Source: Syntrophales bacterium (GTDB lineage: Bacteria > Desulfobacterota > Syntrophia > Syntrophales > UBA2210). Taken from it: a DNA stretch of 64,000 nt. Shown piece by piece: positions 6,438-33,563 of this stretch. Numbering within the stretch: position 1 is the stretch's first letter; every line of letters begins with the position of its first letter. The stretch covers positions 1,120,001 to 1,184,000 of the forward strand of contig CAXXNF010000001.1 in NCBI GenBank assembly GCA_963666365.2, read 5' to 3'. A program made the position numbers and the translations under genes. The notes under the pieces are model-generated. The model was not told the DNA's origin. It searched no databases and saw only the letters and a program-made list of their open reading frames with translations.

Positions 6438-7995
6438 ATGCCCTTTGAACAACAGATGGAAGAACTGAAGCGCCGCAAGGAGAAAGCGCTGCTGATGGGA
6501 GGAGAAAAAAAGATCGCCAAGCAGCACGCCGAGGGGAAATATACCGCCCGGGAACGGATCGACAAGCTTCTCGACGCCGGTTCTTTTTCCGAAGTCGGAA
6601 TGCTGAACCACTCCGATATGCCGGGGATGCAAGACAGAAGCCCCGCCGACAGCAAGGTAAGCGGCTATGGTATGATTGACGGACGGCCCGTGGGATTAAT
6701 TGCTGCAGACTTTACCGTCCTGGGCGCGACTTCAAGCCGCATTGCAGCACGAAAAGAAGGCGATGTCAGGACCACAGCCACGCGGCACGGCTTCCCCATA
6801 ATCTATCTCGGCGAGGCCGGCGGCGCCCGCATGCCCGACATTATGGGATCGAGCGGTCTGGCATCGTACGGCGGCGGCGGCAGAAGCACCTATCTTGAAC
6901 ATATGAGCAGGGTACGGAAAACACCTATGGTTATGGCCGCGCTTGGCAGATGTTACGGAGAGCCGACCTGGATGGCCTGCCTTGCCGATCTTGTGGTCAT
7001 GGTCAAAGGGGCGGCCATAGGCGTATCGGGTCCCCGAATCGTGTCCCTTGCCCTGGGTGAACAAATCACCGACGAGGAGCTGGGGGGATGGGAGCTGCAT
7101 GCCCGGGTTACCGGCATGGCCGACCGCGTGGCGGAAAACGAAGACGAATGCATGGAAATCATTCGCACATATCTGAGCTACATGCCCTCGCACAACGGAG
7201 CACCCCCCCCCGCGGGCGCCCGTGCCGGAAGGTTCCGGCGCCGACATGCCCCACATTTTCGATCTGCTGCCGGAAAAACGAAACCGCACCTACGACATGA
7301 ACCAGATCCTGAAATGCATTGTCGACAAGGACAGCCTCTTTCCCATCAAACCGCTCTTCGGCCAAACGGTCATTACATCGCTCGCCCGCATCGACGGCAA
7401 GGTGGTCGGTATCGTGGCGAATCAGCCCCGCTTTAACTCCGGCGCCATGGATACGGACGGCATCGAAAAAGTCATGAGCTTCCTCTGTCTTTGCGATTCC
7501 TTCAATATTCCTCTTGTTTTCATGGAAGACATTCCTGGATTTCTGGTGGGACGCGAGGCGGAGAGGAAGCGGGTAGGCGCCCACGTAATGAATTTCATGA
7601 ACGCTCTGGCCCTTGTTACGGTCCCCAAAATCACAGTGATCGTGAGAAAGGCGTACGGTCAGGCCTACTGGAATATGTGCGGTTCCGGCGCAGGCGCCGA
7701 TTCCATAGTCGCCTGGCCCTCAGCCGAAATCAGTTTTGTCGACCCCGTCATAGGGGCAAACGTGGTCTTCGGCGCCACGCCCGCAAAGACGCCGGAGGAA
7801 CAGGCGGAACGGGTGGCAAAAATGGCAGAGGGGACCGACCCTTACGGGGCCGCCGGTCTTCATTTCATTCATGATGTGATCGATCCGCAGGAAACGCGCA
7901 GCCACATCATTAAGATGCTCCAGCAAACACAGGATCTTTCAAAAACGAAAGGAATAAGCGAGCACAGACTGGCCTGCTGGCCTACCAAGTTTTAG
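6438..7995 (+). pseudogene. Acyl-CoA carboxyltransferase subunit, copy 3, with a +1 frameshift in a C9 tract (or a sequencing error)
   Basis: ORFs 6438..7436 and 7222..7995 together are colinear with copy 2. C9 at 7203-7211 sits where 8 C would restore HNGAPPPRAPVPEGSG. Confidence 0.85.
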
Positions 7996-8164: not shown

Positions 8165-9037
8165 ATGAAATGGAAAACAAAAATCACTGAATTGCTGGGA
8201 TGCCGATATCCGATTTTGCAGGGTGCCACCGAAATGATCGGCACATGGTCCTTTGCCGCCGCCGTGGCGGAGGCGGGCGCCCATGGGACGATTACCGCAT
8301 CGATATGCAGAACGCCGGATACCCTCCTCGACGATATTCGGCAATGCAAGGATGCCACAAAGGGGTCATTCGGCGTAAACCTGAGCATCGGTCTCTGTCC
8401 CCGGATAGAGGAGATGCTGGAGGTGTGCATCGCAGAAGGCGTTCCCATAGAAACTTCGGTATATAAGCCGGATGCCCTGGCGCCGCGCATCAAGGAATCG
8501 GGATTGCCCTGGATTCATAAGTCAGCCCGGGTAAAAGACGCGATCCACGCCCAGGAAGTGGGGGCAGATGCCATAATCCTGGTGGGGGTGGAAGGTGCGG
8601 GCATCAAAAATCCCGCACAGTTGCCCACCATGACCACCATCCTCTGGGGCGTGCGGGCGCTTTCCGTGCCGGTAATCGCCGCGGGCGGCATCGGTGACGC
8701 TCACAGTTTTCTTGGCGCACTGGCACTCGGGGCCGAAGGGGTGACCATGGGAAGTGCCCTCATGACCACGAAGGAATGCCCTATCGCTCCGGAATATAAA
8801 GAAAAAATGCTGCAACTCAGATTGGATGAGGCAGAGTTCCGTACCCGTGTGCTGACGCCGGCGCCTTTCAACCGCGACGCCGCGGCACGTCCTGAACCAA
8901 AGGATATCGACTGGAGTCATGCCGCTTCCTTCGCGGTGACGGGAATTAATCGGATACTCAGCGTAAAGGATTTTATCAATACTGTGATATCGGACGCGGA
9001 ACATATAGTGCGTGAATGGCAGTTTTTAAAGGACTGA
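8165..9037 (+). CDS. Nitronate monooxygenase / FabK-like FMN-dependent enzyme
   Basis: TKITELLGCRYPILQG, GVEGAG and PVIAAGGIGD...LALGAEGVTMGS motifs. Start set at MKWKTK. Confidence 0.88.
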   Translation: MKWKTKITELLGCRYPILQGATEMIGTWSFAAAVAEAGAHGTITASICRTPDTLLDDIRQCKDATKGSFGVNLSIGLCPRIEEMLEVCIAEGVPIETSVYKPDALAPRIKESGLPWIHKSARVKDAIHAQEVGADAIILVGVEGAGIKNPAQLPTMTTILWGVRALSVPVIAAGGIGDAHSFLGALALGAEGVTMGSALMTTKECPIAPEYKEKMLQLRLDEAEFRTRVLTPAPFNRDAAARPEPKDIDWSHAASFAVTGINRILSVKDFINTVISDAEHIVREWQFLKD

Positions 9038-25401: not shown

Positions 25402-25454
25402 CCGATTATAGGGGGGCATATGGTCTAAGCATAAGTGGGAACTGGATTCAACCA
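25402..25454 (+). repeat. Left end: target duplication plus two degenerate transposase-binding repeats
   Basis: CCGAT|TATAG. ATGGTCT at offset 14 and CTGGATTCAACCA at offset 36 align with ATGGTTTGTCCCA at the same offsets of the reverse-complemented right end. A further copy, TGGTTTGGCCCA, lies at 25560-25571. Confidence 0.7.
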
Positions 25455-25835
25455 CACTTATTGCAGCTCTATTGCGCGCCCGTACCAAGCATTATAAATT
25501 ATAATCAGTTGGTTAGAAAATAGCGAAGTGGAATTTATTAGCAAGGCGGCTCTTAGGTTTGGTTTGGCCCATTTTTATAAAAATTCCCGTATTTTGATAT
25601 TTTTGTCAAATGGTATGCCATTTCAAATATTTTACCGCAATATTGCAACACAATAAAATCACTTTTAAAATTGACAACACCCCTTCTCTCAACAGGAATT
25701 AAGTGGGAACATGGGTACAATATACTGGGAACACAAACCGGAAACAGAATAAATATATTATAACTTAATGATATTACATCGAATTTATTTAGTTTTATCT
25801 AGGTGACTATAAATTATTCTGGAAACTATATAAAT

Positions 25836-26321
25836 TTACAAGTTGCTGTTCTCAGTACCATCGGTTTTCAAGATTGATGCAACCTCCTTCTGTAATTCAC
25901 CAAGCTGGTTTTCAACACTCTTTATCTGCTTTTTAAGCTCCGCAATTTTAGGACTGTTGTTTTTAATATCTATTTCATAATCACCGAAAATACCCATAAA
26001 ACGTTTTGTACTAAACATTAGAAGGTTTAAATTTTTTATTAGCGAGTCAAGCCTAATGTCTTCCAGGGCGATGTCTAGTATCCCTAATTCTTCAGTGGAG
26101 GTCAACCCGTCACCCATTGGCCCCTCTCCATAACGCAACCACTTTTCACTAAGATCATAGACGTTGCAAATTAACTCAATTAATTTATCCGATGGAAGCA
26201 TGCCACCCGTTTCCACTTTGGAAATAAGAGGCTGATCTACCTTAAGGCTGTTAGCAAACGCTTTTTGCGACACCTTAAGCATACTTCTTAAACTATGTAT
26301 TCTTTTACCAATATCAGACAC
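25836..26321 (-). CDS. XRE/Cro-C1 HTH repressor, divergent from ner
   Basis: IGKRIHSLRSMLKVSQKAFANSLKVDQPLISKVETG...WLRYGEGPM; occupies the position of Mu c. Confidence 0.88.
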   Translation of the reverse strand: MSDIGKRIHSLRSMLKVSQKAFANSLKVDQPLISKVETGGMLPSDKLIELICNVYDLSEKWLRYGEGPMGDGLTSTEELGILDIALEDIRLDSLIKNLNLLMFSTKRFMGIFGDYEIDIKNNSPKIAELKKQIKSVENQLGELQKEVASILKTDGTENSNL

Positions 26322-26340
26322 TTAAAAACCTTCCTTCAAA

Positions 26341-26391
26341 AACCATAACCACCATATTTTATCTTGACATTATGGTAATTATGGGTATAAT
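26341..26391 (+). promoter_or_regulatory. Consensus sigma70 early promoter with operator-like ACCATA/TATGG repeats
   Basis: TTGACA (26364-26369), 16 bp, TATAAT (26386-26391). ACCATA occurs twice upstream and TATGG twice within the spacer. Confidence 0.8.
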
Positions 26392-26401
26392 CATAGTTAC
26401 G

Positions 26402-26749
26402 ATGAAAAAGAAAACAAAAAAACCCTCAAATATTCAATGGGAACTAATTAAAACCTTGCTTTTGGCTCGCGGCTATTCACTTGCCGATCTTGCCCGTCTG
26501 TATGGGGTAAATCCTGCTTGTTTCCGGTATGTAAAAAAAATACCTTACCCCAAAATTGAAAAAATTATAGCCAGTTACCTTGGCGTTAAACCCCAGGACA
26601 TATGGCCTGAACGATACGACGAAAACGGAAAGCCCAACAGAATTAACCAATGGTACTTGAGGGGCTCCCGTAAGGTGCAAGATACCACAATTGCAGAAGA
26701 ACAAAAAAGCAAAAATACCAAAAAGACAACAGAGGCGGACGGGCAATAA
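26402..26749 (+). CDS. ner: Ner-like DNA-binding protein
   Basis: IKTLLLARGYSLADLARLYG...PYPKIEKIIASYLGVKPQDIWPERY is the Ner/Nlp signature. Start moved to 26402 because the 26372 start lies inside the promoter. Confidence 0.88.
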   Translation: MKKKTKKPSNIQWELIKTLLLARGYSLADLARLYGVNPACFRYVKKIPYPKIEKIIASYLGVKPQDIWPERYDENGKPNRINQWYLRGSRKVQDTTIAEEQKSKNTKKTTEADGQ

Positions 26750-26750
26750 T

Positions 26751-28844
26751 ATGCAACAATGTGACTGGTATACCGCGCAAGAGTTAGCCGATATGAATTT
26801 GCCCGGCATTCCCAATACAAAACGAGGTGTTAATAAATTCGCGTCTAAACATGCGTGGCCTTTCAGGAAACGAAAAGGAAAAGGCGGCGGTCGTGAATTT
26901 AACATCCATTCCATCCCCCATGCGGCGTTAACTGCATATATGCAATCAAACTTTCCACTCAATCAAATAACACACGCCCAGGACCGCAATTCCAATGACG
27001 ATATAGATTGCATTGCATATGCTAACGCCCCTGAATACAACAGAAAAATAGCCGACAAATATTTAAAATGGATCAGGCGCTTTGACGGTTTGTGTGGCAC
27101 CGAATTGAAAAGCGCCATCAGGCAAGAACAGAAGCTAAATCCCAATATCGACGTGCCGAGCTATCGTCGCCTTAATGCGTCAAGAAAAATATACGAACGT
27201 GAAGGCGTAGAAGGTCTTCTTGGGAGTTATGGCAATCGGGCGGGCAAAAGCAAGATACGCCCGGAATGGCAAAAGCATTTTAACTCATTGTATTTAACTG
27301 AAAAATTGCTTTCCGTTCGGGCATGTTGGAAAATGACATTAGGGAAATTTTGCAATGATAAAGAAGGGGCATCTTCCTTTCCCTCACCTACGGCCTTCCA
27401 AAGACGGCTTGAACAACAATTCCCGAAGTCTGCGATATATCTACATCGGTATGGCTTTAAAAAATGGAATCGAAAGTTCGGAAATTATATCCCCCGCGAC
27501 ATTTCCGATCTTAAGGCGGGTCAATGCTGGGTAGCAGATCACGCCCAACTTGATATATTTGTCAGGTTGAAAAACGGAAAGGTGGTTGCCCCCTGGGTGA
27601 CTGCCTGGATCGATGCAAAGTCAACAAAAGGATTAAGCGCACTACTTCACCCCGATCCGCCCAATTCTGACCATGTATTTCAAAGCTTTCATCACGCTGC
27701 AATTAAATTCGGTCTGCCTGAGTGTATCTACCTCGACAACGGGAAAGACTACCGATGCAGAGACTTTGCCGGAAAACCCCAAAAACATACAGTCAATATT
27801 GACGAAGCACAAACGACAACGATGATGTCTCTTTTGAATGTTGAGGTAATTTTTGCCATTCCGTACAATGCCCAAGCGAAACCAATAGAACGCACCTTTT
27901 TGAAATTTAAAGAGTCTTTTTCGAAAAACTTTGAGACATATCGGGGGGGTAATGTTATAGAGCGCCCCGAAACCCTCCTTCAAAAAATCAAAAATGGCGA
28001 ATCTGTCTATTTTGAAGAATTTGAACGCTGCTTTAATGAGTATGTCTTTGAAATATATAACAAAACACCGTCACACGGAAGGTATTTGCAGGGACGTTCA
28101 CCAGACGACCAATGGAATAGCGAATCTCCTATAAAACGCATGGTTTCAAAAGAAGCGTTAAAACTATTCTGTATGCGTACCTCAAAGCCTGTTGTTATTG
28201 GTCGTAACGGGATCAATGACGGAGACTTTGGGGTAAGTTATTGGTCTGATTGGATGATACATTATAAGGGCCGCAAGGTTTACGTTCGCAGGGATATTAA
28301 GGACTTTAACGAAGCCTGGGTATTTAGCGCGGAAACGGACGAATATCTTGGCAATGCCTTTCTTGTTGGATTGGTGCCGTTTCTTGCAAAAACTCCGACC
28401 GAGAAAAAAATTCTAAAGGAATTGATGGCTGAAAAGCGCCGTGAGGTTAAGCTGCTCCGCGAGTTAGGAAAATCTGATTACGTTCCTTCCGTTCAGGAAA
28501 GGCTGACTCACCTAAAAAAGGCAACTATGCTTCTTAGCCCTGAACCGGTCCCCGAAGGACAACAAAACGTTGTGTTGCTCGCTAATACTAAGATGGATAA
28601 AGTTGCACTGGCAAAAAAACAACACGCAAAATCATTGGAGATCAAGGAAAAATTTCTTGATAAATTGTACCCGAAAAGCCAGGGCACAGACAATTCTAAT
28701 GTAAAAGTACCCGATATGTTTGATAGATTTGCAATGGAGCCGATGCCTAACGTTACCCGCGACCAGGAAGAGGAAAAGCCGGAATATAATTTTTTTGAGC
28801 TGTTGGGGAAGGTGAATAAACAAAAATCACAAGGCGGCATTTAG
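26751..28844 (+). CDS. MuA-like DDE transposase
   Basis: N-terminal Mu-type DNA-binding domain (WYTAQELA..LPGIP..KRGV...RKRKGKGGGREF). Catalytic core WVADHAQLD...YLDNGKDY...NAQAKPIERTF. Mu-transposase-like C-terminal region. Confidence 0.93.
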   Translation: MQQCDWYTAQELADMNLPGIPNTKRGVNKFASKHAWPFRKRKGKGGGREFNIHSIPHAALTAYMQSNFPLNQITHAQDRNSNDDIDCIAYANAPEYNRKIADKYLKWIRRFDGLCGTELKSAIRQEQKLNPNIDVPSYRRLNASRKIYEREGVEGLLGSYGNRAGKSKIRPEWQKHFNSLYLTEKLLSVRACWKMTLGKFCNDKEGASSFPSPTAFQRRLEQQFPKSAIYLHRYGFKKWNRKFGNYIPRDISDLKAGQCWVADHAQLDIFVRLKNGKVVAPWVTAWIDAKSTKGLSALLHPDPPNSDHVFQSFHHAAIKFGLPECIYLDNGKDYRCRDFAGKPQKHTVNIDEAQTTTMMSLLNVEVIFAIPYNAQAKPIERTFLKFKESFSKNFETYRGGNVIERPETLLQKIKNGESVYFEEFERCFNEYVFEIYNKTPSHGRYLQGRSPDDQWNSESPIKRMVSKEALKLFCMRTSKPVVIGRNGINDGDFGVSYWSDWMIHYKGRKVYVRRDIKDFNEAWVFSAETDEYLGNAFLVGLVPFLAKTPTEKKILKELMAEKRREVKLLRELGKSDYVPSVQERLTHLKKATMLLSPEPVPEGQQNVVLLANTKMDKVALAKKQHAKSLEIKEKFLDKLYPKSQGTDNSNVKVPDMFDRFAMEPMPNVTRDQEEEKPEYNFFELLGKVNKQKSQGGI

Positions 28845-28855
28845 AGGAGGTCAAT

Positions 28856-29830
28856 GTGGCTGCTCAAGCTGTTGCGAAAAAGGAAAATACTCTCCAAGAG
28901 ATACCGGAATATGGTTATTATACAAGACTTTCCAGGCGGTTTAGTTACACAATCAGAAGCCGCAATAACCCTTTTTCGTGGACTAGCCTTGCATTTCTTA
29001 TGAATAGGCCAGCTATGCAAATCAAACAATTTGCAGAGGGCATTTTTGATGATTATCTTTCTCCGATGATTGCCAAAGACGTTGAAGCCTTCCTGGTAAA
29101 ATATGAAACAGAGGAAACCCGCTTTGAGGATGATATATGTCAAACCTCTTTTTACACAGAAATATTTCAAACATGCCAATTTGCACGTGATTCCGTAGAC
29201 ATGGCCATCATTGACGGACAGGCGGGATCGGGAAAATCTGTTGCTTTGAGAGATTTTAAACGGCGTGATCCGCTTGCAATCATGATTACTCTTGACCCAT
29301 TGACAAAAGCACCCTCGACAGTTTTACCGCTTATAGGCAAACAGGTTCCCGTGAACACGTCAGATGCAAATAAATCGCAAATATTACAAAACATTATAGG
29401 GGCGCTTACAAACAGCAAACGCCTATTGATAGTCGATGAAGCGCACTTTTGCTCATGGGAGACATTAGAAACGCTTCGTCGCATTCATGATGCGGCGCAA
29501 GTAGGCGTTATTTTGTGTGGTCAAGAGCGCCTTTATAAGCAAATGAAAGACCCTAAATCAGGGTATCTGTGGGATCAGATCAGCTCACGTATTGGCATAA
29601 GGGCCACCCTTAAAAATATCAGAAGTGAAGATACGGAAATGATATGCCTTCGGTTGTGTCCAGGGCTTGACCCTAAGTGTTTGAAATATTTACATCAAAT
29701 AGCGCAAGATTCGGGCCGGTTCAGACTCGTTGCAAAAATACTCAAAAAAGCAATCAAGTTTGCAGACATTGACAAAGAAGCCGTGTCTTATGAGCTTATT
29801 CAAAGCATTGCGGCACAACATATTCTATAA
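28856..29830 (+). CDS. MuB-like AAA+ transposition ATPase
   Basis: Walker A GQAGSGKS, Walker B LLIVDEAH, LETLRRIHD and QISSRIG; GGAGG RBS; directly follows the transposase. Confidence 0.92.
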   Translation: MAAQAVAKKENTLQEIPEYGYYTRLSRRFSYTIRSRNNPFSWTSLAFLMNRPAMQIKQFAEGIFDDYLSPMIAKDVEAFLVKYETEETRFEDDICQTSFYTEIFQTCQFARDSVDMAIIDGQAGSGKSVALRDFKRRDPLAIMITLDPLTKAPSTVLPLIGKQVPVNTSDANKSQILQNIIGALTNSKRLLIVDEAHFCSWETLETLRRIHDAAQVGVILCGQERLYKQMKDPKSGYLWDQISSRIGIRATLKNIRSEDTEMICLRLCPGLDPKCLKYLHQIAQDSGRFRLVAKILKKAIKFADIDKEAVSYELIQSIAAQHIL

Positions 29831-29846
29831 ACAGAGGGCTTATTTT

Positions 29847-30164
29847 ATGAAAAAAGAATTATCGCCAGAAGCACAGCGGGCTTTACGACGCCTAAAAACG
29901 GATGAAATTGAAGCGATACAAAAAAGCAATCCTTTCCGCAATGAACGAAACGAGGCGATTTATAGCTTAAGAAAACTAGGGCTAAAACATTCCATTCTTT
30001 CAGAGATTACGGGTATTTCCCTTACTCAAATGAAAAAGATTTGTCCAGGAAAACGCCGCGAAGAACAAAAGCAATTAGGGGCATTACAAGCGGGTATAGG
30101 ACCGCTCACCGAGGAAATCATAGCCTTAAGGGAGGCGATAGAAGAGTCGTTAAAGAACCGATGA
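29847..30164 (+). CDS. Small HTH protein, possibly a Mor/C-like activator
   Basis: RNERNEAIYSLRKLGLKHSILSEITGISLTQMKKI looks like an HTH; GAGGG RBS. Confidence 0.55.
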   Translation: MKKELSPEAQRALRRLKTDEIEAIQKSNPFRNERNEAIYSLRKLGLKHSILSEITGISLTQMKKICPGKRREEQKQLGALQAGIGPLTEEIIALREAIEESLKNR

Positions 30165-30292
30165 TCCACTATTCAAACGCGCAAATACATATCAAATTAC
30201 CGACTAACACACTTTAGGCTTGGGTTTTAGTGCCGATTGAAATGATTTTAATTACGTTTCCTTATTGAAAACTAAAACTGAAAGGGAGGTAA

Positions 30293-30802
30293 GTGACTAT
30301 GGGGCATGAATTTTTAAAGACCGAAAAATGTGAGGAAGTACCTTTTGTTTCTGGCAGTTTGATAGACGACCTTGACGCTTGGTCCCGGAAATTGCAGGTA
30401 CTTGGGGGAGCAGTGAGTACAATTGCATGGTATAAGAGCAGAAATGTTGATAGTGATTGCTTTTTTGAGACCCAGGGCGAAACTTTGGGGCAGATTATTG
30501 AAGACTACGCCAAAGCCATAGAATTAACCATAGAGAAAAACGCCGCTATCTTTTCCGACCGAAAAGAAAATATCGATATTTTGATTAAGGGGTGTCAAGA
30601 AACCTATGATATTGTAAGTAAAAACCGTCACATTTCTGATATATGCGCGATAGATCGCCGGGTAGCGGAACTTGATGAATTTTTAAAGGGTGCGCTTGTC
30701 CCGGCAATGCGCTTGAAAAACAACTTTGAAACCCTAAAAAGGGAGATTCTTGCAATCAATAAAAAAGCCCCCGAAGCTGTGGCGGCAGCAGAAGGAGCCT
30801 AG
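30293..30802 (+). CDS. Hypothetical helical protein of the element
   Basis: 169-aa ORF with a strong GGGAGGT RBS; no family recognised. Confidence 0.7.
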   Translation: MTMGHEFLKTEKCEEVPFVSGSLIDDLDAWSRKLQVLGGAVSTIAWYKSRNVDSDCFFETQGETLGQIIEDYAKAIELTIEKNAAIFSDRKENIDILIKGCQETYDIVSKNRHISDICAIDRRVAELDEFLKGALVPAMRLKNNFETLKREILAINKKAPEAVAAAEGA

Positions 30803-30869
30803 GAAAAGGGACTTGAATAATCCCGTAAGCTGAAAATACTTTTAACGTAAAAAGAAAATGAAATCAAAA

Positions 30870-30925
30870 TGTTCCGGCTAGGGTAGCTCCCGAAAAGGCG
30901 GTTTCCTCGCCGCCTTGCCGGAACA
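30870..30925 (+). ncRNA. Putative C4-family (c4-2-like) phage regulatory RNA
   Basis: Closing stem TGTTCCGGC/GCCGGAACA encloses hairpins GGG-TAGCT-CCC and AAGGCGG-TTTCCTCG-CCGCCTT. Partly complementary sites GGGGCAACC and TGAGGGG lie at 30936-30952. The family assignment is from recall of phage motifs, not a search. Confidence 0.55.
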
Positions 30926-31015
30926 AAGAAATAGAGGGGCAACCATGAGGGGGTTGTGCGGATCGTCGTGCAATCCCCTTTTTACATATACAGTTTAGCC
31001 AAGGAGGTTTAGCGC

Positions 31016-31483
31016 GTGGATATAAAAAATAAATATGACGCGGTTATTGGGCGCGAGGGGTTGGAACACCTGAAAGACATTGTTCTTTCAAGAAGTAACG
31101 TTACCCCTGGAAAGATCGACGCAAACCAGAGGCACATAAACCGCCTTTTGGGGATCGGAGATGAAGTATTCCTAAAATACTCACAAGATTGTCAACCGGG
31201 CGCTCTGGCCGCGAAAGCGCAGACACGGGCAGCACTCAACGCCTTTCGGAATGCCGGTGATCTTGTGTTTTCAAAGTATCGAAACAACCCCGAAAAGTGG
31301 CCCGAAATCATTGACGAATGTCAACGAAATATTAACGAATTGATGGGAATCAGCGACGAGAGCTTTGTTGATTATATGTGTAAAAAGGAAGCCCAAGAAA
31401 ATAGCACTATCGATGAAACCCAGCGAAAAATTAATCAAATAATCGGTGTGGATGATGAAACCTTTAAAAAATACAACAAATAA
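31016..31483 (+). CDS. Hypothetical protein with three internal repeats of about 22 aa (IDxxQRxINxLxGIxDExFxxY)
   Basis: IDANQRHINRLLGIGDEVFLKY / IDECQRNINELMGISDESFVDY / IDETQRKINQIIGVDDETFKKY; AAGGAGG RBS. Confidence 0.8.
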   Translation: MDIKNKYDAVIGREGLEHLKDIVLSRSNVTPGKIDANQRHINRLLGIGDEVFLKYSQDCQPGALAAKAQTRAALNAFRNAGDLVFSKYRNNPEKWPEIIDECQRNINELMGISDESFVDYMCKKEAQENSTIDETQRKINQIIGVDDETFKKYNK

Positions 31484-31504
31484 TTTCAAATAGGAGGACA
31501 AAAT

Positions 31505-32272
31505 ATGCTTCCAGCTTTAAGAGGTGAAGAAATTGCCGCTCAGGTTCTGAATGCATCGGGCGGTGGCGGTGCATCCATAAAGAAATATTTTAAACTGGAT
31601 ACTGTCAAATTTTCATGGGTGGATGATTACCTTCGGGACGAAGCCTTAAGGAAGAAAATCCAAGGGTTAAACGACAAAATCAACGAAATGCACAATTCGC
31701 CTATGCATAAAGATGAACTTCGGGCGCTGTTTGAATCTACCATTGACCAAATCAATAACGAACGCCGTTTGTGGTTCGAGGAAAAGCTCAAGGCCGTGCA
31801 GAATAGAAAAGGTAGAATGATATACAGTGACATGTTGATTTACAATGCAAGCCTGTATATTTCTCCCATTGGCCTTTCAAAAGGAGATATTGACCAAATA
31901 TTTGCCAACATTCCTGAAGGCGTCAAACAGGCAGACATTACGACCGCCATCGGAAGAATGCAGGAAGAGGTTGCGGAAATAGAGGCTGTTATTGAAAAAG
32001 AGCTGTCACCCCGGTCACGCTGGCTATACCGTGAGGACGGTGAGCCCTTTCACTACCCCCAGGGTTGCCGCTGGACACAATACGTTAACGCCTGGAAAAA
32101 GATTGCCCAGCGATTTGATGGACCTGTAAGCGCCGAGGGGGTCCCTGTTCAAAATGAACATGAAGAGGCTGCATATTATGCGCTAGGGTTGGATAAAATT
32201 CAAAAATTAGAGCCCCTTAGAAAACCGGGGCAAGTGTTTGGATGGGCAAATAGCCGGGCAAATGACAATTAG
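31505..32272 (+). CDS. Hypothetical coiled-coil protein
   Basis: 255-aa ORF with an AGGAGG RBS, 21 bp after the previous gene. Confidence 0.75.
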   Translation: MLPALRGEEIAAQVLNASGGGGASIKKYFKLDTVKFSWVDDYLRDEALRKKIQGLNDKINEMHNSPMHKDELRALFESTIDQINNERRLWFEEKLKAVQNRKGRMIYSDMLIYNASLYISPIGLSKGDIDQIFANIPEGVKQADITTAIGRMQEEVAEIEAVIEKELSPRSRWLYREDGEPFHYPQGCRWTQYVNAWKKIAQRFDGPVSAEGVPVQNEHEEAAYYALGLDKIQKLEPLRKPGQVFGWANSRANDN

Positions 32273-32277
32273 GGGCT

Positions 32278-32348
32278 GAGGGGTGCCTGTGCTTGACGCC
32301 CACCGGGGGAAAGCCCGACCCCTTAAACACGTCAAGCACCAACCCCTC
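32278..32348. repeat. 71-nt structured repeat, copy 1
   Basis: GAGGGG/CCCCTC and GTGCTTGACG/CGTCAAGCAC stems around a variable core. Confidence 0.8.
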
Positions 32349-32455
32349 TTCTCCTTGATACAGGATGAGGATCATCAATGATTAAAGTCGATTACAAAAA
32401 TAATGGTGTGCAAATCACCTTTATATAAAAAGCGGCGGGGTTTTCGATCAGGCTT

Positions 32456-32526
32456 GAGGGGTGCCTGTGCTTGACGCCCGCCGGGGGGCACTTGGACCCT
32501 TTTTTCACGTCACGCACTAACCCCTC
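32456..32526. repeat. 71-nt structured repeat, copy 2
   Basis: Same length as copy 1, with the first 24 nt identical and differences concentrated in the central loop. Confidence 0.8.
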
Positions 32527-32636
32527 CCTCCCTTCTTTCCTTGAAGGAATATGGTTTACAGTAACACATTGTAATGATAGATAAATAATTCAGTTGTAAA
32601 AAAATACACGCCCGCAAAGAAAGAAGGTGGCGGATT

Positions 32637-32924
32637 ATGAATAAAACACTCTTCAAAGAACGATACGAAGCGCTTTACCCTCTCCCCGATGCGGGCTGGG
32701 ACACAACCTGGGTGGACCGTCTGCGGAGCTGGGATGATTTTGTTGAAAACGGCGCCACTGTTGCCATGCAACTGCGCCGTCTCCAGGCGTGCGCCGGCGC
32801 GTACGAAAAAGATTTTCGCAGCCTGGCGCCTATGCTCCACGATCTCCTTATGGAGGCATTTACCATGACTCCCGAACAGCAGGCCGAGCTCGATGAGTGG
32901 AAGGCGGAACTCGGTTTTATCTAA
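32637..32924 (+). CDS. Hypothetical protein
   Basis: 95-aa ORF, GC-richer than the rest of the element. Confidence 0.55.
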   Translation: MNKTLFKERYEALYPLPDAGWDTTWVDRLRSWDDFVENGATVAMQLRRLQACAGAYEKDFRSLAPMLHDLLMEAFTMTPEQQAELDEWKAELGFI

Positions 32925-33033
32925 TGATCTGTGCATTAATCTTTCTTCTCTTTGAATACACACTAAACGTAGTCAAGGAGAAGAATGATATATAAAATAA
33001 GGCATAACAAAAGATGCGAGAAAGGGCCTAAAC

Positions 33034-33279
33034 ATGAAAGGGAAAAATATCGAAAATAAAGCCCCCGAGATGCGTTTGTGCGCCGAGTGCGGGAAGAAAC
33101 CCACAATAACGGAAAAATCCCCGTATTGTGCATCCTGCATGGCTCGGAGGGCCAACGACAAAAAACGTCTTCAAAAGGCACAGACACGCACAAGCGGTAG
33201 TGATATTAGTATAAACACCAGCCGCCAACCATTAAATATTATCGTTCGCATTGATTTTTCGGTAGTAACCGCTCTATAA
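33034..33279 (+). CDS. Small zinc-finger protein
   Basis: CAEC-x11-CASC. Confidence 0.5.
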   Translation: MKGKNIENKAPEMRLCAECGKKPTITEKSPYCASCMARRANDKKRLQKAQTRTSGSDISINTSRQPLNIIVRIDFSVVTAL

Positions 33280-33355
33280 AATCTCCAAGTACGTGCAAAA
33301 AACTCCGCCTAACCATCCTGAATAAGTCAAAACAATTCTCATAGCGTTTGACGCG

Positions 33356-33409
33356 TTGGGACAAACCATCCGATAAATTGGGACAAACCATCCGGCTAAC
33401 TATACCGAT
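33356..33409 (-). repeat. Right end: two perfect 17-bp repeats, terminus and target duplication
   Basis: TTGGGACAAACCATCCG at 33356-33372 and 33378-33394, then CTATA|CCGAT. A partial third copy, AACCATCC, lies at 33311-33318. Confidence 0.85.
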
Positions 33410-33462
33410 GCCGCGCTAACCGCTTCTTCTCCTTCAGCTTTTCCAAAAAAATGAAAAACTTA

Positions 33463-33517
33463 TTGACTCCCACTACATGTTGTGGTCAAATGCCAGAACA
33501 CCTCCAACATATAGTGT
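33463..33517 (+). promoter_or_regulatory. Tandem NrdR boxes over the nrdJ promoter
   Basis: CCACTACATGTTGTGG (33470-33485) and CTCCAACATATAGTGT (33502-33517) match acaCwAtATaTwGtgt and lie 32 bp apart. A TTGACT -35 box is at 33463. Confidence 0.8.
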
Positions 33518-33563
33518 TTTTTAATTCTGAAGGAATCCAAAACGTACAAGGAGACAGTGCATC

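Follow-up and report, generated by a model that had tools for sequence, protein, structure and literature searches.

What kind of element combines the transposition and repression genes of a Mu-like phage in 8 kb of DNA without a recognizable gene for a virus particle? The question is raised by a locus in the genome of a Syntrophales bacterium (GCA_963666365.2, contig CAXXNF010000001.1), which we analyzed in a window of 64,000 nucleotides (nt; contig positions 1,120,001–1,184,000) to which all window positions below refer. The initial annotation, made from the letters alone, had read the element at 25407–33404 as a candidate satellite packaged by a Mu-like helper, which it fitted better than a decayed prophage. 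We identified it as an insertion with intact genes and ends, and similar compact elements, most of them in a single clade of MuA transposases, were found at other sites. Tentatively, and with the reservations weighed below, we read the element as belonging, with its parts intact, to an old lineage of compact (8–13 kb) Mu-type elements with a satellite-like life style; it would be a natural counterpart of the laboratory mini-Mu.

An 8-kb insertion with Mu-type early genes

The guanine-cytosine (GC) content of the window falls from ~0.56 to ~0.42 over roughly 25.5–33.5 kb, and within this interval the element covers 7,998 bp, with TATAG as its first and CTATA as its last bases. Its left flank is the end of a gene for an FAD-dependent protein, and its right flank is nrdJ, which encodes a class II ribonucleotide reductase, with the nrdJ promoter region; a copy of CCGAT lies directly at each border. 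In a genome of the same genus (G001), both flanks were identified at 72–80% identity and lie ~150 bp apart, compared with 8,088 bp in the window genome, and a genome of the same family (G003) has the same flank arrangement as G001. Because the flanks are nearly contiguous in both genomes, the 8-kb block is an insertion with the boundaries claimed for it, and the two ends and the 5-bp duplication of the initial annotation are borne out by the CCGAT pair and the empty site. In the assembled contigs of 2 sequencing runs of the probable source sample, the stretch was recovered in one contig each, at even depth, and no joint spans the element or leads out of it; another run, X3, yielded only short pieces of low similarity. 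These contigs speak neither for nor against activity. Open reading frames (ORFs) make up 81% of the element; none has an internal stop, most are preceded by a Shine-Dalgarno sequence, and no tRNA or tmRNA gene was found within it.

The left part of the element carries a repressor gene divergent from the early operon, an early promoter, ner, and the genes for MuA and MuB, followed by 6 accessory ORFs (orf5 to orf10), an int-alpA RNA, and 2 copies of a hairpin motif (Table 1). The whole control module that had been read from the letters (divergent repressor, consensus promoter, and ner) was recovered with Pfam, PHROGs, and the promoter search. The helix-turn-helix (HTH) of the repressor is 42% identical to that of the repressor of the closest relative, L087. 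The ner gene most likely starts at 26402 and not at 26372, where the frame opens, because the early promoter lies upstream of the former position. MuA matched HTH_Tnp_Mu_1 (PF02316, 1.2e-9), DDE_2 (PF02914, 2e-8), and Mu-transpos_C (PF09299, 4.3e-9) above the Pfam cut-off, and HTH_Tnp_Mu_2 (PF09039) at 18.8 bits, just below its cut-off of 20.5. Residues D263, D329, and E380 are invariant in an alignment of 20 sequences and, judged from their sequence context, probably form the DDE triad. MuB matched AAA_22 (PF13401, 1.6e-17) and Phage-MuB_C (PF09077, 5.7e-8), and its Walker A and B residues are invariant in the clade alignment, so that both the full DDE transposase and the MuB described earlier hold up. 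TniB (PF05621) matched MuB only at the cut-off (22.4 bits), and no ORF of the element had a Pfam match to TnsA, TniQ, or resolvase.

No family match to terminase, portal, capsid, tail, or lysis proteins was obtained for the 10 ORFs in Pfam and PHROGs at E ≤ 0.01, in agreement with the first reading of the locus. The sole "head and packaging" row in PHROGs paired the ATPase region of MuB with a terminase small subunit family (0.0023). GemA and Mor are likewise not recognizable in the window element, which also has no integrase, primase/replicase, or cos/pac-terminase piracy genes, and the window ORFs had no PADLOC match to defence families.

A host might keep such an element for its own benefit, as superinfection immunity to related transposable phages provided by the repressor or as a regulator of nrdJ. 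The repressor and the intact ends could indeed interfere with incoming relatives, and the element is inserted a short way upstream of the nrdJ promoter region, ~35 bp ahead of 2 palindromic boxes (33440–33525) that, by eye, we take to be NrdR-operator-like; it may thus separate nrdJ from upstream signals. However, the site is empty in the sister genome, relatives occupy unrelated sites, no defence family was matched, and an intact transposase with intact ends would be unexpected at a fixed locus. Domestication for host benefit is accordingly the least probable of the explanations that we considered, and a very improbable one.

Compact relatives in one transposase clade

Database searches yielded 791 relatives of the MuA protein, of which the closest is 59% identical and the next ones reach at most 50%; an exact-word locus search with the protein returned zero relatives, and they were found by alignment-based searches. 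From assembled genomes, metagenomes, and IMG/VR, we collected 80 loci each that contain MuA relatives (240 in all), and we scanned 241 sequences with a weight matrix of the ends that had been trained on 5 of the bounded elements (L104 and L186 were outside the training set). Seven elements, including the one in the window, had high-scoring inverted ends together with perfect 5/5 duplications: the window element (CCGAT), L087 (8,518 bp, TCAAT), L104 (8,531 bp, CTGAA), L100 (9,393 bp, GTTTT), L130 (11,121 bp, CACAT), L098 (12,954 bp, TCTCT), and L186 (13,308 bp, ATTGG). Similar compact elements, 6 more of 8.5–13.3 kb, are therefore present at other insertion sites, as the satellite proposal had called for.

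MuA trees were built with FastTree (137 nonredundant sequences) and IQ-TREE (45 rows). Six of the 7 bounded elements, the window element among them, fell into one clade of 11 rows, with SH-like support of 93 in FastTree and Shimodaira-Hasegawa-like approximate likelihood ratio test (SH-aLRT) support of 99 in IQ-TREE; the pair of the window element and L087 also received an SH-aLRT value of 99 in IQ-TREE, and L100, the seventh, is placed elsewhere in the tree. All 6 clade members with a determinable size are compact (8–13 kb), and the other 5 rows end at contig edges, at 1.8 kb (L088), 0.3 kb (L107), 4.9 kb (L151), 4.9 kb (L110), and 9.0 kb (L177) after MuA. The nearest relatives of the element are thus compact and form one clade. 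Since compactness, accessory genes, and the 2 RNA motifs are shared across a MuA identity of 35–61% among lineage members, the compactness appears to be old and maintained.

Virion genes were also searched for around the relatives. Portal and large terminase (TerL) genes were found by tblastn in none of the 10 other clade loci, and the sister-clade loci L174, L093, L099, and L199 gave portal matches. Among the 18 best-matching loci with long downstream flanks (L098, L100, and L177 included), 10 had PHROG matches of virion categories within 10 kb, and 8 had none.

L087, the closest relative, lies on a 135-kb metagenome contig, has the same termini as the window element and ordinary host genes on both sides, and carries c, ner, A, B, orf5, orf6, the int-alpA RNA, the hairpins, the zinc-ribbon gene, a DUF3800 gene, and a head-protease-like fragment. 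GemA was identified in L104, L130, L186, and L151. Mor/C-type late activators are encoded in 5 of the 7 bounded elements (L104, L100, L130, L186, and, weakly, L098), and in L104, no further gene, and hence no late gene, separates Mor from the right end. A tape measure gene is present in L130 and L186, with a chaperone gene also in L186; a family of ~350 amino acids (aa) is shared by L098, L130, and L186, and a DNA-binding family of ~550 aa stands at the right end of L098 and L186. L100 (8003–17395), with its MuA from another clade, encodes a 717-aa portal-MuF fusion and a Mor/C-type activator and no other virion gene.

These relatives bear on the possibility that one recent internal deletion removed the late region of a prophage, spared its ends, and left it decaying. 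Defective Mu-like prophages are known, every recognizable gene of the element belongs to a phage early region, and the relatives of orf7 and orf8 adjoin GemA and Mor in L104 and GemA in L151. But the closest relative, with 59% MuA identity, is itself compact and occupies a different site, all 6 size-determined clade members measure 8–13 kb, and in several elements, one of which has a distant MuA, the right end is bordered by the accessory module. Further, no deletion joint marked by a truncated late gene or a pseudogene was seen in the element, its ORFs are free of internal stops and have good ribosome-binding sites, and its coding share is high. We consider recent truncation very unlikely. 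The part of the initial claim that denied decay or a single deletion thus stood, on account of the compact relatives and the intact ORFs, and its satellite part is kept here at the tentative strength given above.

The longest contigs with the closest MuA homologues are often 8–13.5 kb (13,457, 8,103, 13,064, 11,484, and 9,968 bp), and many orf8 and orf9 homologues are located on contigs of 8–28 kb; contigs of such sizes would result if assembly stopped at the ends of elements with variable positions. In some relatives (L173, L175, L176, L196, L128, L194, L141, L197/L147, L200, and L211), we observed large terminase and portal genes 5–9 kb upstream of MuA on the same strand, a layout unlike that of Mu, which has A and B at its left end. 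A candidate right end of L151 was not confirmed: an octamer that matches the L151 left terminus in reverse complement lies 10 bp before a tRNA gene (8715–8795, in the region L151:8693–8795), and its flanks are not duplicated. Also set aside was a 17-letter left-end pattern, which occurred in 117 stretches of the genome contigs, essentially all by chance; only L283 among them had a MuA nearby (weak, 26%).

Terminal sites and full-size phages with the same ends

The ends of the window element and its relatives follow the consensus T[A/G]TA[A/G], eight bases, then [A/G]T[A/G]GTTTGAGA. The predicted left site L1 aligns, without a shift, to the left ends of L087, L104, L130, L098, L186, L100, and the provirus G032. 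At the right end, exact copies of a 16-nt repeat begin at 33357 and 33379, directly against the terminus and nowhere else in the genome, and the same tandem layout was identified in L087, L104, L130, L098, L186, and G032. The ends are asymmetric, with a single predicted terminal site on the left and 2 predicted tandem sites on the right, which mirrors the L1 and R1-R2 arrangement of the ends of Mu. Mu has 5′-TG...CA-3′ termini, and the window element departs from this pattern with TA...TA, as do L087, L098, L186, L100, and G032; TG termini were observed in L104 (left end), L130, L151, and L107. The TA...TA termini are an end variant and no bar to Mu-type chemistry. The AT-rich region inside the left terminus may hold inner binding, packaging, or operator sites. 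A motif of ~22 nt is common to the left-end regions of the window element (25450–25475) and L151 (about 92–117), at distances from the terminus that differ between the 2 elements, and could be an inner binding or packaging site.

Full-size phages with the element's end type exist, as the IMG/VR provirus G032 (behind L187; 47.5 kb, CheckV completeness 86%) contains an element of 36,516 bp that is flanked by a GTAAT duplication and has the same left terminus and right-end sites in tandem. A candidate right end in another provirus, G031, was rejected because its flanks match at only 3 of 5 positions.

The window genome also harbors, on the minus strand, a transposable prophage of ~32 kb that looks complete (G000:C1, about 554,000–586,700; loci L247, L005, and L006). 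It encodes a CI-like repressor, a 742-aa transposase (phrog_310), a MuB-like ATPase, small (TerS) and large terminase subunits, a MuF-like protein, a head protease/capsid fusion, a tape measure, tail fibers, and a DNA methyltransferase, and a search for inverted repeats with duplications gave no convincing ends for it. Beside this prophage, the stretch G000:C1 585,000–592,000 has a low GC content (0.37–0.45) and large ORFs of 411 and 656 aa without a known family, and it may be another island.

Satellite-like life style or transposon

Without genes of its own for capsid, tail, packaging, or lysis, the element would need outside help to move between cells. In the mechanism that we propose, the repressor would hold the strong early promoter shut, and lifting of the repression would lead to the production of Ner, MuA, and MuB. 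MuA would then assemble on the left terminal site and the 2 tandem right sites, cut the 3′ ends, and join them, with a 5-bp stagger, to a target chosen by MuB. The element is probably active at present. It would pass between cells most likely inside capsids made by a full-size transposable phage that shares its end type, and the conserved module of orf5–orf10, the int-alpA RNA, and the hairpins would serve this helper phase. Indirect support for the use of a helper comes from the relatives, namely, the Mor/C activators, the tape measure and chaperone genes, the portal-MuF fusion, and the 36.5-kb provirus element with the same ends.

Several results weigh against this satellite-like life style and the lineage behind it. 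The window genome (4.0 Mb, 94% complete) contains the element once, and neither a further MuA of this kind nor another pair of such ends was found in it. Co-occurrence with a full Mu-like prophage of this end type, which the initial annotation had suggested looking for, was thus not observed in this one genome, the only one in which it was looked at; satellites can, however, reside without their helper. The transposase of the resident prophage, unrelated to MuA of the element at the level of BLASTP, shares only an N-terminal HTH with it (E 8e-4), and the element's end motifs are absent from the prophage borders. The window element itself has no recognizable late activator or virion-related gene: orf5 reached the Mor profile with hhalign at E 0.0011 when 49 sequences were used, at a probability of only 20%, and its fold matched only generic HTH proteins in Foldseek and VIA-align. 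Right ends were detectable up to 10 kb from MuA, so that only compact elements could be bounded and full-size phages never could be by the matrix scan. Within the clade, L177 has matches to head protease, baseplate hub, and tape measure, the last in a gene that is cut by the contig end; L177 alone among the clade members could be larger. Finally, a non-viral life style is possible since Mu-like transposons without virion genes have already been reported, in the portion of PMC11656645 available to us.

The corresponding alternative is an autonomous transposon derived from a phage, which has abandoned the viral life style, moves within genomes by means of MuA and MuB, and reaches new cells only on plasmids, on other elements, or by transformation, with the c/ner switch merely limiting transposition. 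It would account for a full transposition set with nothing for packaging, for a host genome without a compatible helper, and for a compactness that is ancestral to the clade, and cargo-carrying Mu-like I-A and V-F CRISPR-associated transposons (CASTs) are called "phage-like transposons" in the same portion of PMC11656645. The single copy in the genome fits it less well, as do the accessory genes, which have no cargo-like function (resistance, defence, or metabolism), and the ends, which are nearly identical to those of the 36.5-kb provirus element. Further, Mor/C, tape measure and chaperone, and portal-MuF are kept in clade members without an obvious use for a transposon. We regard the transposon as a serious alternative that is nevertheless doubtful.

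A stronger version of the satellite-like reading would make these elements the first satellites of transposable phages, amplified by replicative transposition during the growth of a full-size relative and then headful-packaged by the helper from the Mu-type left end. We regard this version as less likely than not. Under it, each particle with an 8-kb element would also carry roughly 28–30 kb of adjacent host DNA, and the satellite would double as an engine of generalized transduction; the int-alpA RNA, the hairpin with the zinc-ribbon protein, and the Mor/C-type activators would time these events to the late phase of the helper.

Comparison with known elements

Mu-like phages are the classic example of a virus whose replication proceeds by transposition. 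The element shares with Mu and its relatives the order c, early promoter, ner, A, and B, the Mu-specific MuA domains, the C-terminal domain of MuB, the 5-bp duplication, and the asymmetric ends, and its terminal motif is the same as that of the G032 provirus. It differs from them in its size (8 kb vs about 36–39 kb), in having no lysis, head, tail, or packaging genes and no recognizable GemA or Mor, and in having an int-alpA RNA and a new hairpin. Like Tn7/Tn5053/Tn552-type transposons, which also make 5-bp duplications, it pairs a DDE transposase with an AAA+ target-selecting ATPase; unlike them, it has the Mu-specific N- and C-terminal transposase domains, the C-terminal domain of MuB, and a phage c/ner switch, and no TnsA, TniQ, or resolvase.

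Laboratory mini-Mu, a small Mu derivative shown decades ago to be movable by a helper, is packaged by helper Mu from the left end along with adjacent host DNA. Mini-Mu and Mud constructs retain the Mu ends with the regulatory and A/B genes and have most phage genes removed, as described in the available part of PMC3145075. They are self-transposing, a property that the element would share; they are engineered deletions of Mu, whereas the window element belongs to a natural lineage whose members have conserved accessory genes and RNAs of their own.

With phage satellites (P4-like elements, phage-inducible chromosomal islands [PICIs], and PICIs of the capsid-forming type [cf-PICIs]), the element has in common that it is small and integrated, has its own switch and mobilization genes, and has no full virion set. 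P4 has delta and sid, and relatives of the window element likewise carry single late-type genes and late activators. To our knowledge, the known phage satellites all use integrases and replicons, unlike the window element, which is mobilized by replicative transposition, has neither integrase nor primase/replicase, and would depend on a helper only under the satellite-like reading. The int-alpA gene pair is the core module of PICIs, and the RNA family is named after it, according to the accessible part of PMC13612085. I-A and V-F CASTs are phage-like Mu-family transposons that have no virion module and carry other genes (available part of PMC11656645); their CRISPR components are absent from the window element. 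Mu-family elements without virion genes are already on record, and the accessory module, the hairpin, and the compact clade add to them.

We found no description of a Mu-type satellite or a natural mini-Mu in the open-access full texts searched, and a 2026 preprint on gut prophages, in the part available, covers complete MuA/B phages only. A natural, long-lived mini-Mu lineage would mean that the niche of a helper-moved element is occupied in nature. If the elements are satellites, a transposition-based type would be added to the known phage satellites, and a route for the transduction of large pieces of host DNA would be suggested. Even if they are plain transposons, they would show that the viral life style has been left repeatedly and stably, and either way, 2 structured RNAs (int-alpA in a new setting and a new hairpin) and several conserved proteins can now be tested.

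Accessory genes and structured RNAs

The coordinates of all features are listed in Table 1. The HTH gene and the 5 short ORFs of the initial annotation are undamaged, as it had stated. Homologues of orf5–orf8 and orf10 were identified, among the 240 loci, in L087, L088, L104, and L151 and nowhere else; orf9 had no match in these loci. A search with the orf8 family yielded one further locus, L376, from a Desulfonema metagenome-assembled genome (MAG), in which homologues of orf6, orf7, orf8, orf10, and orf5 lie between MuA and a right-end-type terminus at 7035, with other DNA and a tRNA gene beyond. Its MuA is only 26% identical to that of the window element, and as the module stands beside so distant a transposase, it appears to travel with compact elements across MuA lineages.

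Table 1. Features of the Mu-type element and its borders, in window positions (HTH, helix-turn-helix; AF2 pLDDT, AlphaFold2 predicted local distance difference test; MFE, minimum free energy)
Feature	Position	Strand	Evidence
Target-site duplication, left copy CCGAT	25402–25406	.	Direct reading; identical to right copy; empty site in G001
Left terminus with terminal transposase-binding site L1 (predicted)	25407–25431	+	Weight-matrix score 26.2; starts TATAG
AT-rich left-end region with three TGGGAAC-type repeats	25432–25835	.	Repeats at about 25434, 25701, and 25724
c-type repressor, XRE HTH, 161 aa	25836–26321	-	Pfam HTH_19/HTH_3/HTH_31 and PHROG repressor families
Early promoter TTGACA-16-TATAAT, 12/12	26364–26391	+	Sole 12/12 among 31 promoter-like sites of the element
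ner-like regulator	26402–26749	+	Pfam HTH_35 1.7e-16; phrog_769 5.6e-22
MuA transposase, 697 aa, intact	26751–28844	+	Pfam Mu domains; phrog_310 6e-100
MuB-type AAA+ target-capture ATPase, 324 aa	28856–29830	+	Pfam AAA_22, Phage-MuB_C; phrog_296 1.5e-51
orf5, small HTH DNA-binding protein with long C-terminal helix	29847–30164	+	HTH fold; AF2 pLDDT 91
orf6, clade-specific	30293–30802	+	Homologues only in L087, L151, L088, and L376
int-alpA RNA (Rfam RF02996)	30871–30938	+	Between orf6 and orf7; 49.1 bits vs gathering score 35.8
orf7, three internal repeats	31016–31483	+	Homologues in L104, L151, and L376
orf8, helical protein, 255 aa	31505–32272	+	AF2 pLDDT 86; homologues in L104, L151, and L376
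Hairpin motif, copy 1	32271–32355	+	MFE -45.5 kcal/mol, z -4.7; covariation
Hairpin motif, copy 2	32449–32533	+	82% identical to copy 1 over 72 nt
orf9, 95 aa	32637–32924	+	Family of 13 unnamed proteins, 51–71% identical
orf10, small four-cysteine, zinc-ribbon-like	33034–33279	+	CxxC...CxxC in translation
Tandem sites R2 and R1 (predicted transposase-binding), two identical 16-nt direct repeats	33357–33394	+	22 bp apart
Right terminus, ends CTATA	33380–33404	+	End comparison and weight matrix
Target-site duplication, right copy CCGAT	33405–33409	.	Direct reading

The orf5 family comprises 202 representative relatives, and homologues follow MuB directly in L087 and L088 and lie beside the right end in L376. 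Pfam Mor was matched by none of 49 family members, and with 3 sequences, the comparison to the Mor profile was not significant (E 0.073). The best VIA-align match of orf5 had a Z of 5.7 with a root-mean-square deviation (rmsd) of 2.1 over 48 residues, and the Mu activator C was reached at Z 3.8. Structure comparison thus placed orf5 as a generic HTH protein and gave no solved-structure match for orf8, whose model returned nothing from the PDB at E ≤ 0.001 in Foldseek; VIA-align gave only coiled-coil look-alikes for it (best Z 8.1, rmsd 9.9, 129 residues), and BFVD one uncharacterized phage protein (E 3.5e-3, TM 0.45). The orf8 family consists of 19 unnamed proteins, and the orf8 and orf9 families are mostly located on contigs of 1–28 kb. 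No Pfam, PHROG, or PADLOC match was found for orf6, and the ESM Atlas was uninformative for orf6 (best match 0.85) and for orf10 (0.91, to unnamed clusters). The orf7 protein is 54–55% identical to its homologues in L104 and L151; we observed that its threefold repeat of ~15 residues (type ...IN.L.GI.DE.F.KY) is kept in both. The orf7 and orf8 homologues adjoin GemA and Mor in L104 and GemA in L151. Weak homologues of orf10 stand after the hairpins in L087, L104, and L151, and the homologue in L376 is 52% identical over 44 aa.

The RNA-like structured sequences noticed in the letters proved to be real, namely, the int-alpA RNA and the two 72-nt hairpin repeats. The int-alpA match covers model positions 1–71 of 71 (E 5.4e-8), and further copies were identified in L151 (55.7 bits), L087 (48.8 bits), and L130 (47.3 bits). 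In the window element and these 3 relatives, the RNA lies just upstream of the first gene past the early module, and its 3′ tail finishes with a purine-rich stretch beside the start codon. It was found in none of 11 loci of the sister and other clades, nor in L376.

The hairpin is GC-rich and 72 nt long, and its 2 copies downstream of orf8 are the only ones in the genome; they gave no match to an Rfam family. Relatives carry 1–3 copies at the equivalent place, and an orf10-family cysteine-rich gene follows the hairpins directly in L087, L104, and L151; orf9 intervenes in the window element. In an alignment of 7 copies from 4 elements, 15 of the 20 consensus pairs show compensatory double changes, and 92.6% of cells are paired vs 76.5% in shuffled alignments, with none of 500 shuffles reaching 92.6%; pairing falls to 40–57% when the partners are slid. 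With 7 related copies only, this is good, although not final, evidence for a new covarying structured element.

Early regions of sister-clade phages also contain Rfam RNAs. At L174:7416–7500, L192:11411–11496, and L199:9669–9739, we observed matches to sRNA-Xcc1 (59.7 and 54.4 bits) and to the type II hammerhead ribozyme (48.5 bits).

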